Positions 3,537-63,724 are shown, counted from the stretch's first letter. The stretch: 64,000 nucleotides of DNA from Botryllus schlosseri (GCA_051294905.1 CM119371.1:37078001-37142000), one strand, 5' to 3'. Notes: generated by a model from the letters alone, not told the origin. A program made the numbers and translations.

Positions 3537-4307
3537 CTTCAGGCAATGAGCATTTACTTTGAAGATAAATAGTAATTGAATAACTGGTTGGTGGTACAAA
3601 ATTTTAATACTGCTTTCAAAAGTAGGCCTACCTTCATGATAAACGTTATTGAAACCCAAAGAACTTTTTGTGTGCCAATTATCAAGAGCTACCGGCACGA
3701 TAAAGGAAGTAAAACAGAGTTGAATTCAAAACCAGATGGAGAATTATGACGCATTAATGTCGAATTTAGAAATAACATCAAAGGAGCCAGAACACAGCAA
3801 CAATGCAGTGTATAACTACGGTTTATAACTTCGGGTTTTAATATGAATATATTATTAAAATGTATATTAAAGTTCTGTACCCCAAAGAGTCTCTTCAACT
3901 ACGGTTGCGTAAAACAGTATGACAGCGTGACACAATTCTTAATTATTTATTATAGTGGTGCCCACCGTAAATACTATTTTATTCAAATCCAAATTTTTCG
4001 ATGGCAATAACTCCGCTTCCACTTGTTTGAATCGAACCAAATTTGATGAACATCGTTTCTATACATAACCTCATACTTTCATGGGGTGAACAGTAAATTT
4101 TCAAATTTTTTCTATTTATTTTTCTATTTATCACGAGTCAATCAGACTTTCATAGTTTTGACTCGAGTGGTCCAGTCGAGTCCTTTTTAATTCACCACCG
4201 AGTCACCACCAAAAAATTCGAGTAAATAAAAACCCATTGAGTTTAAGCACTCTCTTTGCTTTGATTATGCGAAATTTATTGTCGGTGACATCATATTCTG
4301 GGAGATC

Positions 4308-7300
4308 CGACCCACACCACTTCCTGACATGGTGTATCCGATCGGTGGCCAGGTATGATTTTTAATTTCGGGGCTGGTACGGGAGGAAGCCGTGGAGATT
4401 TTGTTCGAACAGGTTTGATTTTGTTAGTTTTCAAATTTGTGCTAGGGCAATGGCTCTCAAGTGCTGCTTTGCCAAATACGCGAAATGCCGGGAGTTTTAC
4501 AATTGCCCATTAATTGGAGAAGTGAAACATCCGATTTTATATTGATTGAGAAATTTAGAATGTATTCTTTTTAATCTATACTAGAATCTGAATCAAGCAT
4601 TATTTTTAGATGATTCTTGCGAATACCCAAGTTATGCGCTCCTTACCACTGAGAGTTTCTTAATTAACGAGATCGAGAATTATTGTTTGGAAGTAGTGAA
4701 TCTCTATTGGTCGTATCGTAGCATACCAAACATGTAATATGCCTACTATGCACCTATGATCGTTAGTGATATATCGGTGAAGTTGTGATCAACCCACAGC
4801 ATTGACACAAAGTGCAATGAACATATGTTCGAACAATTTACCAAATTATCTTTCATACGATGTAGAACTGGCGTGCTATTCTTTGTGATAGCTCAATAGG
4901 TACATATTCAAACTTTCCATATCTTTCATACTCGAATACTCGACTCAAATGTAAGTTTAATATATGATTCAGAATCGAATTACTCAGACACTAGATGTTG
5001 CCTTGCCCACTCGGTAATAAATGTGTAGTGTGTACGCAGCGATGATGCGAGTGTAGTACAGCACAACTTGAAAGCAGCCGGGGTCTTGTTTAAGACGAAA
5101 TCTGCGAAATCTAAGGAGACTCTACGTAATAAATAATCAAAATTCATTGGATTTGGTCAGTCCAACTTACCGATATTTGGCAGTATAGACCTGATTTCGT
5201 CTCGATTCGCGGAGTAGTTGGTTAGGCGTTGACATTTTGAATCCAACGATATATTACTCATTGGTTTCGCATCCCATTAAGGTCGTGTTTTACAGTTTTG
5301 AGAAGTGGAGCATTATTGCCGTCGAAAAATTTGGATTTGAATAGAATAATATTTACGGTGGGCACCACTATAATAAATAATTGAAGAATTGGTCACCGTA
5401 AATACTAGTTTATTCATAATTCATATTTTTCGACGGCTATAACTCCGCTTCCACTGTTTGGAATTGAACCAAATTTGGTGAACATCGTTTCTACAGACGA
5501 CCTAACATTTTCATGGCGTGAACAGAAAATTTTCAAGTTTTTTGTTATTTATTTTTATATGATAAATAGAAACTTTCTTCTCCTGTAGCAATGTGGCTAC
5601 TGTTTGGAATTGAACCAAGTTTGGTGTGTAGTCTACAATTTAGAGACATTTGGCAGTGTAATAGAGGCTTGCAAACGGCCTAGTCGTAATTCTGACGAAA
5701 TATACTAAACTGAAGTTCATGATTTTAAACGGGACTTCGCCTTGCAGATACCATGCAGGGTTGTAACCAGGTCACAAGGCTCCGAGTCAATAGTCAATTT
5801 CACTTTTATAATTTTGACTCGAGTCGGGTCGAGTCATTTTCAACTCACTACCGAGTCAAATCCGAGTCCAAGTCAGCGAGCAGAGGCTCAAGTCTGAGTC
5901 ATGGTATTGTGACCCGAGTCCAAGTCATTGTGTTGACTGCTCAGTTTCTCGATGAATACTTGGTAAACAGACTTTTTATATTTCTGTGTGGTGATATCAA
6001 ACAGTTCACATTCATAATATACTAATTTTCCTCACTTTTAGCAGTTTCTGGTCGCATTTTCAAGTACCAGTACCAATACACGAAATCCCGATAGTATGGT
6101 TACTTTACTATTATTCGAAATTACAACGAAATGTCGGTCTTGGGCGTCTGTGTCTCGAGTCCAAATCGAGTCAATACACAGATTATCTCGAGTCGAGTGA
6201 TTTCCGTAATTTGAGAAAATGACTCCGAGTCAAGTCAAGTCATCAGAAAACCGTGACATGAGTCATTACAGCCCTGGAACCCTGTATGAAAGGTGTGATG
6301 TCACAAATGTGGCAGGAATTGAAATTTGGAATATTTACCTTCCAGTTGCATACATTTGTTGTAATTACCTGTTTGGTCAATTTTGATATTGGAATTTCTT
6401 AAAATATGTTTTGAAATACTGCTCCCCACGCTAAGATAGTTGAGAACCACAGTGTTAGGTTGTGATTTCCAGTTGACAATCGAATGTATTTTATATTATT
6501 CCAGGACGACGATCGGTCATCGCCGCCAACTCTAGTGCTGGATGCCATTTAAAATGCCCAGTCGACTTGAGAAAGGCTCTCGCCCCGAATCTCGTTCTGT
6601 CAGGTAAATTATTTTATAGCTGTGTAATGTTAGAAGAAATTTTGTTCGGGTAACAAACGGACTTGACTATACATCCGCAAAATCTTTCTTGATCTTACTC
6701 AAGTCACGATTTTTTTGGTGACTCGACTCGACTAGGGTCATATTTTCAAGTGCGTAAGATGACTCGACTAGAGTCATTTTCTGTATTGACTCGACTTGTT
6801 CTGGAGTCATTGTGCATGACTCGAACCAAGTCACATAGCTCGAGACTATGACGGCCAAGACAGACATTTTATTGTAACTTTGAAGAATAGTAAAGTCACC
6901 ATATGATTGCTGTTTCGTCTATCATTCCCGATACTTGGAAAATTGGGCCAAAACTGTTGGGACTGAGTAAAATGACGATATTATGAATTGGAGTCATTCT
7001 ATATCACATGAGCAGAGTTGTAAACAGTGGATTTAACCAGATTGAACTGAAAACTGAACGGTGAACATTGTGACTTGGACTCGGCCCTCTACTAGCTGAC
7101 TTGGACTCCATAGTGAATTGAAAATGACTCGAGGCAAAATCGTAAAATTCGGAGTGACTTGTGACTCACAGACCTTGTGACTTGGTTGCAATCCTGGTTT
7201 CAACTAGTCGTTATGACAATTTCAATTTCACCCGTGAATGCGACAGACGCTTGTTTCAAAAGTACTATTTGCTTTACAATATCCAAAAGTACAGGTGGAA

Positions 7301-12226: not shown

Positions 12227-13053
12227 ACGGTCAGCTGATGCGATTGTGGGATTTTGTGATATCATCGATAGACCACTGCTTTGCCGTTTAGTATTACGAG
12301 TTCCGCCGTTTAGATTCATCTTCCTTGACTCAAGTGTATTTGTCATAGTCCATCCTGTCCGCAGTTTTGCCTGGTCAGTGGTTAACCTTCCTGTAATGAA
12401 AGTTGGAGTGATTTTGAGATGGTTGGATTTGCTCGGTCCGCTGTGAAGTGTTCAACTATCGAATGTAAACATGAAATGACAACGACCGACTTTTCTGTTT
12501 CTTTAGTTCGTTCCGCTTCGCTGAGGCATGATTCAGAATTGTTTAGCGGCAGCGCCTTTAGTATTTCTGGCAATCCAAAAGTTGAGAGCGCAGAATTTTG
12601 AACGAAAGTTACGGTCGCAACGAGGCCGACAATTTCACATTCGATAGTATAGCAGTGTAATTAACGCCTTGTGTACGGTTCGCCCGGTCCGCCGTTTAGT
12701 GTTGGCCTCGTGATGTGATTGCAATACCAACAATACCGTGAATATTATAGTAAAGTGTCAGTCAGTAGTTCAGAGCTCAGTTCAGTACCACTCACGAGGA
12801 GGGTGGCAGTGATTATTTCGCAATAAGATCAGTCTCTACGGTCAGTATGTGGACAATAAGGTCAGTCCACGGTTGAGGGTTTATGGCATTAGGGGGAAGG
12901 GTTGGGGACGAGGGTTGTATCCCGAGGTCGCTCACCACTACGGTACGCTATCTCCCCGTTATGACAGTAAATCCTAATCTAATGACCCGAGCCACCAACC
13001 TAATGACACTAACCCTTAATCGTGGACTGAAAGTATTGTAGACATAGCAGCTC

Positions 13054-49204: not shown

Positions 49205-51541
49205 GTCTATAGTGTCTATATGTCTGCTGCAAAATCGCCTTCGGAAAATATATTACCGAATAAATACGTGGATGAAAGCCGAAAACTTGGTACACTGTTA
49301 CATGAAATCATCGAGAAGTATAGCCTCATGACCGTTTTCGGTATGGTACACTGTCAAAATTAATACGAACAGATCAACGCCGAATTTTGCGTAATATTTA
49401 CTGAGGAATCGGCTGATCAAGCGATCAGCTGTTAGCCGCCATCGAAAACGAAACAGCTATCGCGCTTGACAGGGGTTGTAATTGCGAGCAAATGGCCCGA
49501 AGGCCACCATTCCACGGTGAAATTGACATTGGAGAATATAAAATAAAACTAAATATTTGAATGCAAACCGAGGATGTTAGTAAACTGTTTCATGATATCA
49601 TCATCTCATCACCTATCTCAGTATGGAACACAGATACACCGGCTTTTGCGTGAAATCCGCAATGCGTTAGGTAGGCTAAGTGTCAGATCAGCGCACATCT
49701 CTACCATACTCGAACTTAATAACGAAATTGCTGCCCTAATCATTGAGTGTCAACCTTGAGACTTGGCACAGCGTTCGATACTAAAATCAAGACATACCAT
49801 GTAAAAGTTCATGACGGATCTAGCTAAGGAGCATCGTTAAAATCAATGAAGACCAATACCGGCTTTGCGTGAAATATGTTTGCGATACATGACCGATCAG
49901 CACACACTCGACTTTGGAAACGGAATTACTACCCTAAACTTTGAGTAGAAATCCTGAAACTTAGGACAGTGTTAAATACCACCATCACGACATGACATAC
50001 CAAGTTTCAAGAATTATCATGGTGTGAAACACCATCAAAATCGACCTGTACCAGCAACGGTCGACTCAACGCATATCACGGTATCCGAGTTCAGATATAG
50101 ATACGATTGTTACATCACACCTTAGGGGCGAGCAAGCATATTTGCCCCGGTTGCTCGGCCATTTTACGAATAGGAGAGAGTAAAGCAACGTTTCTTAATT
50201 GTGCGCAGCTTTGAGAGAATAGATAGTGAAAGCTTGTTATGAGCGCTACCGGGGCAAGCCCCGGCTAGGCATTCACAAAGCGAAAACACAGAAGAGAATT
50301 CGATATTCGCGGAGACTTCGCTATGTATGGGCATTTGCAAGCGAAAGCACAAGAAGAACGCGGGTTTCGCTGTGATCTCGATATATATTGAGCGCTGTGC
50401 GTCTATAAATGGTTAAATTGTTATTGAACAGAATTTTAGGTGGGGCAATGCCCCAGTTGCCCTATAGGACGAGCCGCCACTGAATAGTATATTCATATTA
50501 AAATGAACCCGAATATTTTCGGCTGACATTCGTCATAAATTGGACAATGATATACCAGCTCTTAAAGCTTGGCTATCAGATTTGGTGCATTCTTATTGCG
50601 GATGCCCTATCGACAAGGCTGGTTTTTTGATAAACAAAGAGTGTTTCGTTGCTATCAAAGAATCATGCTCCAAGCCTGTCATTCATATCACCAGTTATAT
50701 TGGTATGCAGCCTTGTCTTGTTAATGCTTAATTGTTCATGGTCGAAAATGTTTCCTCGTAAATATATATATGTAAACCCAAACAGAACAAGTCGTTTCAT
50801 GACAGTCTTTCTCAGGTTGGAAAACTTGGATCCATTCTTTGGCGCATAACATTTGTCTATACTTTTAGATTAGGATTTCACTTTGACGGTAGAAACTCTC
50901 TGCGGGTCGATCAAAATGCCGTCGCGGGCCGAATCCGACCCGCGGCCCGTATGTTGCCCGTCCCTGCGCTAGATGCTGGGCGTGATATGTTCATAAAATA
51001 TATGTTTCCTCAATTTGGTGCCATAAATGTTGCGACCACACCAAAAGTATCTTCGGAAGCGTTAATATTGCATTAGCCTCCATCTATCTTTGCGGAAATG
51101 GTTTCCGGCACTCCTCGTTCATATCAAAACGAAGACGCGGATTTTCAAGATACGACCACGTACTTCAAGAAATACAGCAGCAAAATTAATAAAATAATAA
51201 AAGGCTACAAATTTCTACATAAATACCATCATGTTATTTTCAAGAATAATTATTATTTTGCTGTTTATCACAAGCCTACAGTTCATATTTGCACAAAACA
51301 GATGAAGGTTGCACCATAATAGAGCTAAAATTGAACTAAAACTTGAGGGGGTCCGCGAAAGTCCGTGACGGTTAAAAGGGGTCCGCGAAGCCAAAAAGGT
51401 TGAGAACCACTGGTTTAGAACAATCGATTGACCGCAAAACAATGACCTTAACAATGGTTGCCGGTAAACTCGGCACTTGGTGAATTCGGCCATTGGTGAA
51501 CTCGGCCATCGGGAAATTTTGTAATAAAGTGTATTAACAGC

Positions 51542-53540
51542 TGTTTGCGCTTGCGCATTTGTTAATTATGATTTTAGTAATCATTTGTAATCAAGCCTTT
51601 TCAGATAGGCTGCTGTTCTTACCGCTATATAAAGCGTCTGCGAACCACCATTTGTTGGTTATTTACGTTGACGCAAAATTAATTGTAAATCTTAATTTAG
51701 TTACGTTTATCTTGATTCTGTTACGTTCGCCGGCTGTATGTTGCTGTTGCTGTTGCTGTGCTAAGTGTCAGCTATCATCATCAAGTTGGGCGTGCTATTT
51801 TGTTATTAAAGTCATGGATCACGTGTATGAATTACAACGATTAGCATCCGTAGATAACCCCATAGACAGGCTTCTGCGCCTCTAATCGGCAGCGCAGGAT
51901 TCAGACTGCCGCGCAGAAACAATTTACAATTAATTTGCAATTTGCAATCAATTCGCCGGTGGAAGATTTCCGTCGAATGTTCTCTACATTGAAGAGGGCG
52001 TTTTCCTCTTGGACGGAGGGGACGAATGCGATAATTCCACAGTCTATGCTCACCGTTTCGAGAATCGGGAGCTCTGTTTCATTTGGTCAGTTCAGTTTCC
52101 GTATTTCGACAATGCGTTGATCTTGTCTACAGCATTCTCCGTTTGTCTGAAAGTCGCATCGATTGCATGGCTGCCACATTCAGGATCATTGCAAAGATGG
52201 CAGCGCAACTGCATGGGGAGTATATTCTTTTCTCTCCAGATGATATCACCCGGGACCATATTCACTCGGGTGCTTGAGTCACAGTTGCCGACAGAGATGC
52301 ACAGACGTTGGATGCGGAAGACTGGTCCGTTGCGTGAAACCGACGAAGACGAAGGTTCTGTGTTGTGTGATTCCATTTCAACAGAAACGACCTCTTGGAG
52401 ATGAATGAGAACTCCACCTGACGATGAAGCTGATTGGCATTCAAGGCAGCATAGGGTCGAAGGCAGCATAGGGTCGAGACGGAACAATTTATCTGCACAG
52501 ACATTCATTCCTCTGCGCAGTCGCTTCAGTTTCGCCCTCGCTACCGTTCCCTCCAGGTATTAACGCTCATCGTCTGTTAGATTTGTGTCAGGCACCTCGC
52601 ATCGAAAGGGTAATTTGGCTATTTGAAGAATTGTACCGAGCAAAGCCTGAAATTGTTATGATTCCGAAATAATCATTTCGAGCTGTTGCACGTTGCGGGG
52701 ACTCTAAGATCATTTTGACTTCTCCGATTGTGACGAATTTTCGAGTCTGTGATACGATTCATCCGACATCGAGAGTCATCATCACGCGCTGGGGTGAAAC
52801 TGTCCAGGTTGAGTCGCGTTCGATTGTCTGCGCTCATTCATAGTGATTTATTCTCGTCGCTTGTAGACATGCTGAACGCCTCTGTACCAATTCAAAGTGA
52901 TCTATTATCATCGCTTGTGTAGAGTTGCTGACTGCTTCCATATTTATTCCAAATGATTTATTTTTCTCGCCTGTAGAGATGTGAACGCCTTTCTACTATT
53001 TAGGGTGATATATAGAATGTATTTTGGATAGGAGGTTCAGCAGCTCTTTGTACGTTGCTCATGGTACAATCTCACTTTGCGTATGAGGATGATGATTCGA
53101 GTGATCGGAACGTGTATTACATTGATAATTCTGTTGACTAGGATCAGTCAAATGGAGGAGTGTTTGCGCTTGCGCATTTGTTAATTATGATTTTAGTAAT
53201 CATTTGTAATCAAGCCTTTTCAGATAGGCTGCTGTTCTTACCGCTATATAAAGCGTCTGCGAACCACCATTTGTTGGTTATTTACGTTGACGCAAAATTA
53301 ATTGTAAATCTTAATTTAGTTACGTTTATCTTGATTCTGTTACGTTCGCCGGCTGTATGTTGCTGTTGCTGTTGCTGTGCTAAGTGTCAGCTATCATCAT
53401 CAAGTTGGGCGTGCTATTTTGTTATTAAAGTCATGGATCACGTGTATGAATTACAACGATTAGCATCCGTAGATAACCCCATAGACAGGCTTCTGCGCCT
53501 CTAATCGGCAGCGCAGGATTCAGACTGCCGCGCAGAAACT
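51542..53540 (+). mobile_element. Short non-autonomous LTR retrotransposon (380-bp LTRs, 1.24-kb interior)
   Basis: Direct repeats 51542-51921 and 53161-53539 identical by eye; TGTTT...AAACA ends; TATATAAA at 51626; ATTAAA; purine tract AATGGAGGAG abutting the 3' LTR. Confidence 0.88.
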
Positions 53541-53889
53541 ATTAATATGAATTATTAAACGAAGAATAGTCTTATCAAGTGATTGGCAATCTTGTAAGGA
53601 GGTCAGGGCATGCGTGGATCACGCAGTCACGGCGTGGTTAGATCACGTGATCACGGATTGCGCAAGCGCGGGAGATAACGCGACGTTCGCACATCGACCA
53701 CGCGTGGTCGGCTCAGTGTTGATTTGACTTGGCGTGGGACGGACGGACGACTTTTGAGAAGATGGATATCTGTGTTTTATGTAATAACGAAGTTATAAAG
53801 GATCACCAATAAACGTTTCCCACGAACACGAACAAAAATTTATAAACGTAAAAATAAATTATTTTTTTTGTGCCTTTGGAGAGACGGAT

Positions 53890-60824: not shown

Positions 60825-60882
60825 GTGAGTGACACAGACTTCAATATTCTAACTAGTCATCATGTCTTTAAATATCGTATAG
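60825..60882 (+). other. Predicted 58-nt intron upstream of the ZF3 start
   Basis: GTGAGT donor, CTAAC branch point and TAG acceptor; the same elements occur at 23309-23367. Confidence 0.65.
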
Positions 60883-60917
60883 CTGATGCTCACGAGAGCA
60901 GTGGAGGATTAGAGGAT

Positions 60918-62216
60918 ATGCCTACCAGTGTCAAAATTCATGAATGTGATGTATGTGGAAAATCATTTACTCGCAAGAGTAACCTGAAGAGTCATATGGA
61001 CATGCATGTTGGCGTCAAGAATCATGAATGTGCTGTGTGCAGAAAAGCTTTTACTCAGAAGGGTCACCTGAAGCGTCATATGGAGATTCATGCTGGCGTC
61101 AAGAACCATGAATGTGACGTGTGTGGAAAATCATTTACTGACAAGGGTAACCTCAAGCTTCACATGAAGACCCATGGTAGCGTCAAGGATCATGAATGTG
61201 CTGTTTGTGAGAAATCATTTACTCATAACTATCACCTGAATCGTCATATGGAGCTACATGCTAGCGCCAAGAACCATGAATGTGCTGTCTGTGGAAAAGC
61301 CTTTCCTCAGAAGCGAAACCTCGAGATTCATATCGGGATGCCTGTTGGCGTCAAAAATCATGAATGTGCTGTGTGTGGGAAAGCATTTACTCACAAGAGT
61401 AACCTCAAGCGTCATATGGAGATACATGCTGGCGTCAAGAACCATGAATGTAATGTCTGTGGAAAAGCTTTTACTGAGAAGGGAAACCTCAAGCTTCATA
61501 TGAAGATCCATGCTGGCGTCAAAAATCATGAATGTGCTGTGTGTGGGAAAGCATTTACTCACAAGAGTACCCTCAAGCGTCATATGGAGATACATGCTGG
61601 CGTCAAGAACCATGAATGTAATGCCTGTGGAAAAGCTTTTACTGAGAAGGGAAACCTCGAGCTTCATATGAAGATCCATGCTGGCGTCCAAAATCATGAA
61701 TGTGATGTATGTGGGAAAACATTTACTATGAAGCATCACCTGAAACTTCATATGGAGATGCACGCTGGCGTCAAAAATCATGAATGTGCTTTGTGTGGGA
61801 AATCATTTACTCAGAAGGGTCACCTAAATATGCATATGCAGATGCATTTTGACATCAAAAATCATGAATGTGATGTATGTGGGAAAGCATTTACTCAGAA
61901 GAGAGACCTCAAGCTTCATATGAAGATCCATGCTGGCGTCAAAAATCATGAATGTGATGTATGTGGGAAAACATTTACTATGAAGCATCACCTGAAACTT
62001 CATATGGAGATGCACGCTGGCGTCAAAAATCATGAATGTACTATATGTGAAAAAACATTTACTCATAAGGGTAACCTCGAGCATCATATGGTGATGCATG
62101 TTGGCGTCAAAAATCATGTATATGATGTGTGTGGAAAAGCATTTACTCAGAATACAACCCTTACCGGACATATGCGGATACATGCTTGCTTGAAAAATCA
62201 TAAATGTGGTGTATGA
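60918..62216 (+). CDS. Tandem C2H2 zinc-finger protein (15 repeats, 13 with all ligands)
   Basis: ATG at 60918 is at the same position as the ZF2 ATG. Finger 5 has H>P and finger 15 has C>Y; stop TGA replaces a Cys codon of repeat 16. Confidence 0.9.
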   Translation: MPTSVKIHECDVCGKSFTRKSNLKSHMDMHVGVKNHECAVCRKAFTQKGHLKRHMEIHAGVKNHECDVCGKSFTDKGNLKLHMKTHGSVKDHECAVCEKSFTHNYHLNRHMELHASAKNHECAVCGKAFPQKRNLEIHIGMPVGVKNHECAVCGKAFTHKSNLKRHMEIHAGVKNHECNVCGKAFTEKGNLKLHMKIHAGVKNHECAVCGKAFTHKSTLKRHMEIHAGVKNHECNACGKAFTEKGNLELHMKIHAGVQNHECDVCGKTFTMKHHLKLHMEMHAGVKNHECALCGKSFTQKGHLNMHMQMHFDIKNHECDVCGKAFTQKRDLKLHMKIHAGVKNHECDVCGKTFTMKHHLKLHMEMHAGVKNHECTICEKTFTHKGNLEHHMVMHVGVKNHVYDVCGKAFTQNTTLTGHMRIHACLKNHKCGV

Positions 62217-63724
62217 GGGACGACATTTGCTCAGAAGAGTCACTTTGAACTCCATATGACTATCCTTGCCGGCATCAAACATCTTGTCTGCAATATTAAC
62301 AATAAAGTTCGAACATCCCCCAGACGTGGCGTCCGAGTGGCATTACAGTCCAAATCTACCCCATACGTAATGCCGTCCGGCCGCTGGCATGCAATATCTG
62401 TTTACGAAGCGACTAGCAATCGTTAGCGGCAACTGGGTACTCATCCGTTAATCACGTGTTGCGCATCTATCCGTAGATTAGTTATCCATAGTCAAACGCT
62501 TCGTAGACACTCGGCCTCGTCTGGCGTCTGAGCCGGTTCAACTTCTGTTGCATTCATGGGCATAGTCGTATTGAACTTACTGGAAGCCAAACACCCATGT
62601 TTAAAGTCCATTTCTGGTGAACTCCCGATTAATCAATTGTTTTCATATCACCTTACTGTGTGCACCGAAATCGGGAGTGGTCTTGTTATGAACAGTTACT
62701 GGGAGTCAAGATGATCGCTTGAATTCACTAATGAATTTCGCCATTGATATTAGTAGTTTCACATATTACTATCGAATATTTGAATGATGAAGGGTGTGTT
62801 TTCAAAGATCTAGGGCAAGTTATGAATGCTAATGCATCTTAGGACTTCGTTGCATGCCGTTTTTTCTTGAGATTACGTCAGGATTGTCGGTATAGTGGTA
62901 AGATGTTGGAATCCCCCAAACGTACCAGAAACAAATTTCTTTCATAAAGAGCACATGGTTACAAATTGGTATTCATATCTTTTTCCTCTGCTGTTCACAT
63001 CTGTCCTGTGGGGCTTGCAAAGGGCGCGGCACTATATTAAAATCGAAAATTTAATGAAGTCACAATGAATCGCGCATAGCGCAAAGAAAATCTCAAGCGT
63101 AATTAAAATTCCTAAAAAATTCGAGAGTCAAATCATAAATTCAATTTGCATGTAGACGGCCGCCGACACATACTAAGTGAATTACATGTTGACAGCCGCT
63201 CAAAATTCTTTCTACGGCCTCAGGCTGCAGGGTTGTAACCTTGTCACAAGTCAATTGACGAAATGTGTATCAATAATATGGTAATTTTACTATTCTTCGA
63301 CGTTACAATGAAATGTCTGTCCTGGCCGCCCTAGTGTCGAGTCATATGACTTGGTTCGAGTAATGCACAATGACTCGAGTCACTAAAATATCTCGAGTCG
63401 AGTCATTACAACCCTGGCAGGTTGGCCAGCCATGAGCGAGAGTATCGATTTCCAGTGCATTACAACAAGTGTTTCACATGGCATGCTGTTGTGTTTCAAA
63501 TTGCCATAAATATTGTGTTACTATTGTTACAGATAAGTTTTAGTCCCCGAAAATTCAAAAGTTCTGTATACAGGATAACGTGACTATGACTGGTAATTGG
63601 CTATGCTGCTGCCACAAGATTAAAAGAAATGTAAGGTCGGAAGGAAAGGAAGTAAAAACGACCTAGTACTTTTCAACGAAACACCCACCTTGGAATAGAA
63701 CATATATATAAGAGGAATGCACGC

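Follow-up and report, generated by a model that had tools for sequence, protein, structure and literature searches.

The window analysed here, a 64,000-nt stretch of Botryllus schlosseri DNA, contains an ORF-less LTR element of 1,999 nt (about 2 kb) at positions 51542–53540, all of whose features are given on the plus strand. Its 5' LTR (51542–51921, 380 nt, TG...CA) differs from its 3' LTR (53161–53540) at the last base only, which is A in the former and T in the latter. The internal region (51939–53149) has no ORF of 150 or more amino acids, the longest being 138, and carries remnants of a BEL/Pao gag gene; it is followed by AAATGGAGGAG (53150–53160), which adjoins the 3' LTR and reads as a polypurine tract, and whose place is taken by GGGGAGGAG or GGGAGGAG in the autonomous copies described below. 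A putative TATA box, TATATAAA (51626–51633), is common to all four LTR types found in this work and occupies (nearly) invariant columns of a 27-sequence alignment (A2). A hexamer scan gave ATTAAA at 51805–51810 as a candidate polyadenylation signal, replaced by AATAAA in some copies (L003, L004 and L007); if used, it would put the end of the R region well beyond the LTR segment at 51676–51690 that is the subject of much of what follows. Flush with the end of the 5' LTR lies a putative primer-binding site (51922–51938), in which 15 nt exactly complementary to that segment are followed by 2 nt that can pair with the LTR across a bulge. A search of 51400–53700 against Rfam gave no matches at E values up to 1.

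Copies of the short family in the genome

The 495-Mb genome (219 contigs) contains at least 40 matches to the LTR, mostly in pairs about 1.6 kb apart. Perfect 5-bp target duplications surround the TG...CA ends in seven of the eight other short-family pairs that were checked, and the eighth belongs to a tandem array. Of the first 14 copies aligned across the LTR junction, 11 have an exact site and 11 an exact LTR segment, and every difference is a singleton. One old copy, L038 (about 75% identity), has lost the LTR segment by deletion.

Several groups of copies depart from this simple plan. In a subfamily (L042 and L045–L049) a repeated TGTTGCTG-rich module, placed between segment and polyadenylation signal, lengthens the LTRs by about 90–155 nt; the two arms are unchanged there except for single LTR-arm changes in L047, L048 and L049. 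Two diverged short relatives, L034 (G000:C4:11342000-11351900, about 3780–4340) and L040 (G000:C6:28490000-28499900, about 3900–4080), have directly after the LTR end three to six tandem 22-nt units, each starting with the site motif (of the ATTTACAATTAATTCGACTGCA type), and in L034 a piece of the LTR R region stands inverted ahead of the first motif, as though the stretch between the arms had been inverted. In L033 (G000:C14:1861000-1870900, about 4400–4500; 70% identity) a 32-nt imperfect inverted repeat in the leader replaces the simple site.

Two longer copies, L031 and L032, with 5–6 kb between their LTRs, were considered as autonomous partners and rejected, as they are short elements with a 3–4 kb foreign insert and no ORF above 190 amino acids. 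Reverse transcriptase-like ORFs near L038 and L036 (RVT_1 only) were set aside as unrelated insertions; none of 11 neighbouring ORFs matches any Pfam family, and L037 has a LINE-type endonuclease.

The autonomous relative is a BEL/Pao element

With up to two mismatches allowed, 49 places in the genome match a pattern that runs across the LTR end into the site, compared with 10 for a reversed control; at least 13 of the 49 lie in the LTR/primer-site copies examined, and of 10 others that were fetched 5 are without an LTR. Some of the matches lie outside the short family, where a strongly diverged LTR of about 327–330 nt is followed by long ORFs. This autonomous element is about 6.6 kb long, its membership being assigned on L054 together with L080. 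Its gag ORF encodes a SAP domain and DUF1759 (6e-23), its protease ORF DUF1758 (3e-6), and its pol ORF of 1,100 amino acids Peptidase_A17 ("Pao retrotransposon peptidase", 7e-48), Integrase_H2C2 (8e-9) and DUF5641 (3e-26), as well as rve at 6e-6, a value below Pfam's cut-off. We note that the SAP domain (E 2e-9 to 2e-12) opens the gag ORF, upstream of DUF1759, in L054 (704–2590) and also in L052 and L053.

The earlier note had asked whether the partner's reverse transcriptase would be of BEL/Pao, Gypsy or chromovirus type, and Peptidase_A17, DUF1759, DUF1758, the integrase and DUF5641 answer in favour of the first; judged by these domains, the autonomous partner is a BEL/Pao element. The Pfam search gave no chromodomain or Gypsy-type matches in the partner pol, so it is not a Tf1/sushi chromovirus. 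The same gag, protease, peptidase, integrase and DUF5641 set is found in canonical BEL/Pao elements (Belpaoviridae, Semotivirus), with which the partner also shares TG...CA LTRs (about 330 nt), a polypurine tract and short target duplications, the latter being 5 bp in both of the two autonomous pairs checked. It differs from them in that the tRNA site is absent from the lineage found here.

Positions 52230–52347 of the window are 73% identical in DNA sequence to the autonomous gag region over 122 nt (tblastx E 9e-13). The gag remnants of the window element are only related at this level, so it is an internally deleted relative and not a copy of the exact autonomous family. The short and long LTRs can be aligned in islands only, namely the TATA box and following bases, the segment, and the last ~80 nt, and the LTR body is about 76% identical in two short blocks only. 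The window element resembles the TRIM/LARD class of non-autonomous LTR elements in its length of 2 kb, its lack of any ORF of 150 amino acids or more, and in sharing LTR ends, primer site and type of polypurine tract with an autonomous family; it differs from that class in being a deletion derivative with gag remnants, whose LTR body is strongly diverged from that of the partner.

The putative primer-binding site is complementary to the element's own LTR

The 15 nt after the terminal CA of the 5' LTR (51922–51936, ATTTACAATTAATTT) are an exact match, in reverse complement, to LTR bases 51676–51690 (AAATTAATTGTAAAT), and G51937 and C51938 are able to pair with C51674 and G51673 past one bulged A; an RNA fold of the site agrees, with 17 contiguous 3' bases paired and one bulge. 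The LTR segment's 3' end, base 51690, stands opposite base 51922, the first past the LTR, which is the geometry that priming needs. The TATA box ends 43 nt upstream of the segment. These four points (the exact complement, its prolongation by GC over one bulge, the pairing of the segment's 3' end with the base abutting the LTR edge, and TATATAAA about 45 nt upstream) had been made in the earlier note, and all are borne out by reading the sequence.

The zero-order expectation for such an exact match to the LTR is 1.6e-6. At 12,660 control positions in the flanks, reverse-complement matches to the LTR reach 11 nt at most, and 20,000 LTR shuffles gave no match of 15 nt, the longest anchored match being 13 nt, found once. 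A chance origin of the 15-nt complement is excluded.

The site also lacks the mark of a tRNA-type site, as the earlier note had pointed out. There is no TGG in the first 37 nt after the 5' LTR (the site begins ATTTAC), and the first TGG past the LTR (51959–51961) is 38 nt downstream and is TTG in the autonomous relatives, i.e. it is not conserved. The 18-nt tRNA-complementary site by which the ICTV profile characterises BEL/Pao elements (PMC8742986) is not found, and the site matches the element's own LTR. In a comparison limited to two tRNA calls in 340 kb, the longest word shared with the site is 6 nt.

The two arms covary

Each of the four LTR types has a segment and a site that pair with one another. 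Besides the 15-nt arms of the window family given above, the arms (segment first in each case) are TAATTAATTGTAAAT and ATTTACAATTAATTA in the autonomous family (L052, L054, L063 and L064; 15 nt), AATTAATTGTGAAT and ATTCACAATTAATT in L058, a third LTR type (14 nt), and GATTGTGAGC and GTTCACAATC in L079, a fourth type that is 81% identical to L052 (10 bp, one of them G-U); L062, a copy of the autonomous family, has the variant arms TACTTAATTGTAAAT and ATTTACAATTAAGTA (15 nt). Between the window and autonomous families A-U is changed to U-A, in L058 A-U is changed to G-C, and L079 differs from the canonical pair of arms by three double changes and by the shortening of both arms. In L062 A-U is changed to C-G, and the change is present in both LTRs (L077 is the 3' LTR of this copy). 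Since the two LTRs of L062 are identical at 330 of 330 positions and are bounded by a 5-bp target duplication, the changed pair predates the insertion and was passed through retrotransposition. A mismatch in L053, on the other hand, is present in its 5' LTR only and absent from its 3' LTR (L078), which is the pattern predicted by decay after insertion. The L058 and L079 types are single copies in this assembly, so propagation of their variant pairs is not demonstrable there.

In a formal count over 27 sequences, from which L079 was left out because it is not in register, 97.2% of 392 cells are in standard pairs and three pairs are changed on both sides (shuffle mean 1.0). None of 500 shuffles reached either that degree of pairing or that number of double changes, tests that are inflated by the relatedness of the sequences to each other, and when the partner column was slid by 1–3 columns pairing fell to 20–50% of the cells. 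Unpaired positions, one or two in each case, are present in 9 of the 26 alignable copies and are singletons, as decay after insertion would give. The earlier note had held that its proposal would fall if the complementarity were not conserved or if related copies had a normal tRNA primer-binding site. Neither is the case: the pairing is conserved and covaries over the four LTR types, and the relatives carry the same flush site. By this comparison, the pairing of the two arms is maintained by compensatory changes.

The same data bear on whether the arms might be something other than an RNA duplex, either DNA sites for one host DNA-binding protein, lying in the two opposite orientations and made up of AT-rich motifs of the AATTA type, or an inverted repeat that arose by chance or recombination and plays no part in replication. 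The motif ATTT[AG]CAAT[TC]AATT is tandem in the L034 and L040 leaders and occurs twice in the window (51922–51935 and 51940–51953), as a protein site could. However, chance is excluded, a protein site need not stop at the LTR edge, and neither the private complementary double change in the young copy L062 nor the matched shortening of the arms in L079 is predicted on these grounds. We regard such an origin as very improbable.

Predicted RNA start and fold

The autonomous LTR of L054 has an initiator-like motif, TCAGTT (348–353), 28 nt past the start of its TATA box. Alignment with this motif predicts that the RNA of the window element starts near 51650–51654, and we give the predicted start zone as 51647–51656, since an inverted copy of the LTR in L006 (see below) reaches 51647. 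The segment would then begin about 23–27 nt into the RNA and span approximately +23 to +41. The autonomous LTR has AATACA at a distance similar to that of the short family's ATTAAA. RNA run X21 gave no reads. In a single-cell RNA run (X24) there are 78 LTR reads, the depth being no more than 14 for one strand and 3.4 for the other; if the second mate in libraries of this kind reads in RNA sense, these reads represent sense transcription. All four X24 reads that cross 51695 carry the family variant, and there are no pile-ups of read starts or ends on the LTR among the 78.

RNA running from the predicted start to just beyond the site was folded for the four LTR types. All four have the helix between segment and site in their minimum-energy fold and also in their centroid fold. 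A second helix is predicted in three of them (L054, L058 and L079), in which AGUUGG, AGUCGG and AGUUGGG, respectively, at the predicted start pair with CCGAUU past the site; with it, the entire 5' leader would be aligned with the site and the sequence past it. The overall fold energies are no better than those of shuffled sequences (z -0.3 to -2.2); it is thus the covariation, and not stability, that carries the argument.

Covariation proves the pairing of the arms and not priming as such, and a conserved leader structure that serves packaging, dimerisation or translation control, with some other primer for reverse transcription, would also account for it. The second helix and the further structure predicted in the leader are in keeping with this, as are the leaders of related short families, with their tandem motif copies or long hairpins. 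Against it, the helix stops exactly at the LTR edge in four LTR types, which is the obligatory spot for the 3' end of a primer, no tRNA-type site lies nearby as an alternative, and the one-step LTR-to-site change in L062 is a prediction of primer copying. A role confined to leader structure therefore seems unlikely to us.

It is also conceivable that the LTR serves as primer through a natural 3' end of the RNA. Polyadenylation in the 3' LTR would then cut near 51690 and give an R region of about 40 nt, and this end, in cis or supplied by a co-packaged RNA, would anneal to the site and be extended without RNase H cleavage. The paired region and the second helix together cover approximately the predicted start to 51690, so that R would equal the primer, U- and GU-rich bases follow 51690, and an inversion in L006 that extends beyond the predicted start fits a primer that continues into U3. 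However, none of the four LTR types has an AAUAAA-like hexamer 10–30 nt before 51690, where the only candidate upstream is the TATA box, 44–57 nt off, and the short family has a canonical ATTAAA or AATAAA at 51805. In addition, GCAGAAACA before the site cannot pair with a poly(A) tail, so that a polyadenylated end would be an unpaired flap, and single-cell reads span 51695, with the sense depth going on to the LTR end. We rank a 3'-end primer below one made from the 5' leader and think it improbable.

A model for self-priming

The best reading of these sequences is that a BEL/Pao lineage and its non-autonomous derivative carry, where a tRNA site would be expected, a primer site that is self-complementary and covaries, and that it works in a Tf1-like manner outside the Tf1 clade. 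The window element is a non-autonomous, internally deleted BEL/Pao element, and it is probable, though by no means certain, that it and its autonomous relatives start minus-strand synthesis from their own RNA and not from a host tRNA. The earlier note had proposed a mechanism analogous to that of Tf1, and the comparative evidence (a flush site, its conservation and its covariation) favours that proposal; the start of transcription, the cut, the enzyme that makes it and the priming itself are what we infer from the sequences.

In the proposed scheme the 5' leader of the transcript, about 35–44 nt from a start at 51647–51656 to 51690, would fold back on the site at 51922–51936, so that 51676–51690 would form the 3' part of a self-primer with its 3' end at 51690. 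A cut after 51690 would leave a 3' OH paired to the base beside the LTR edge, from which reverse transcriptase would extend from 51921 down to 51691 before transfer to the 3' copy of the repeat. Plus-strand strong-stop synthesis would then copy the primer into DNA, and the site would be rewritten from the LTR segment in each cycle, which would explain why the arms covary. One feature counts against a strictly Tf1-like course: the paired segment is not at the predicted 5' terminus of the RNA, and because it is internal an internal cut of a longer leader must be assumed.

One copy may preserve a product of such copying. In L006 an inverted copy of LTR bases 51647–51675 follows the site directly and seamlessly (44 nt in total, with one mismatch), and is in turn followed by an internal deletion of about 150 nt. 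This is possibly the product expected from plus-strand copying of a whole 5' leader primer and a microhomology join. L006 is a single copy, and a DNA-level fold-back at the inverted repeat could be another source of its structure. The inverted leader reaches 51647, possibly 51642, which is 3–12 nt upstream of the start given by TATA spacing.

A further-reaching version of leader priming, which we put forward tentatively and consider doubtful, is that the whole capped leader of about 40 nt is the self-primer, that it is kept on the minus strand and copied fully into a single-stranded plus-strand tail, rewriting the site in each cycle and driving integrase-independent insertions, and that it has replaced tRNA priming in a BEL/Pao lineage. 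If true, this would give one explanation for the covariation of the arms, the inversion in L006, the tandem arrays and the lack of a target duplication around the window copy.

The arrays and the window copy are as follows. L006 and L014 (G000:C1:24482556-24485984) form a tandem array with shared LTRs, comprising three LTRs and two internal regions, in which the inverted leader follows the site of the first unit. In a second tandem array, L013 (G000:C9:27767548-27767988), a polypurine tract precedes the 5' LTR. The window copy has no flanking target duplication (51530–51545 and 53536–53555). Contigs of X1 and X2 run from 51542 directly into the 12 bases past 53540, and so represent the empty site; the insertion is therefore missing from some genomes under the same organism label, i.e. 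it is polymorphic. By analogy with what is described for Tf1 (PMC11042837), the window copy may have entered without integrase.

Relationship to known self-priming and tRNA-primed elements

For Tf1 self-priming has been demonstrated, and Tj1 and further members of the Tf1/sushi group have been proposed to use it (PMC4600332). Like Tf1, Tf2 and Tj1, which belong to the Ty3/Gypsy chromoviruses, the elements described here have no tRNA-type site, a site adjacent to the 5' LTR that is complementary to the LTR-derived 5' part of the RNA, and a proposed fold-back and cut (PMC4600332). About half of Tf1 cDNA is reported to retain a single-stranded copy of the primer site, and this primer copy at the cDNA end has been associated with insertions that are tandem or independent of integrase (PMC11042837); here, too, there are tandem arrays and one copy that lacks a target duplication. 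The Botryllus elements differ from Tf1 in that the partner is a BEL/Pao element and not a chromovirus, in that self-priming is here predicted from sequence, and in that the segment lies about 23–41 nt inside the predicted RNA, compared with the first bases in Tf1, with an extra helix predicted at the very 5' end. The paired segment of Tf1 is 11 nt long, compared with 15 nt here.

In plants, sequence alone has likewise led to the prediction of self-priming in the Tcn1 clade (Ty3/Gypsy) and in the TAR lineage (Ty1/Copia), whose relatives are tRNA-primed (PMC6317226). Those elements belong to other superfamilies and another kingdom, and that survey does not take in BEL/Pao.

BEL/Pao elements have been described as metazoan-only (PMC3601003). 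The ICTV profile of the Belpaoviridae describes their replication as tRNA-primed, with an 18-nt site for tRNA-Arg or tRNA-Gly (PMC8742986), and insect BEL/Pao elements with a tRNA-Asn site (PMC3212995) or a tRNA-Tyr site (PMC4580426) are on record; the main survey of the superfamily (PMC3118150) leaves primer sites unmentioned, a search for the term giving 0 occurrences. As the partner is BEL/Pao, which that profile presents as tRNA-primed, the suggestion in the earlier note that this could be a lineage in which self-priming is not described holds good. In the openly searchable literature consulted, no paper was found that ascribes self-priming to BEL/Pao.

To date, the superfamilies with demonstrated or predicted self-priming are Ty3/Gypsy (Tf1/sushi and Tcn1) and, in plants, Ty1/Copia (TAR). 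If our reading is true, there has been a further independent origin of it, in a third LTR superfamily, and the description of BEL/Pao as tRNA-primed would need correction. Tools that search for a tRNA site would miss or mislabel such elements. Host tRNA fragments may restrict retrotransposons via their primer sites, a restriction that self-priming would escape. The system is open to direct testing through its copies with identical LTRs, the polymorphic insertion in the window and the LTR RNA in public runs.

Other repeats in the window

Two further repeats were noted in passing. Just upstream of the element, at 51459–51517, is a different short repeat, whose contig depth in X1 and X2 is very high (about 325–350) and which has RNA reads on both strands. 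Positions 60830–62321 hold an 84-nt unit repeated in tandem, in at least 15 copies that are 63–84% identical to the reference copy.
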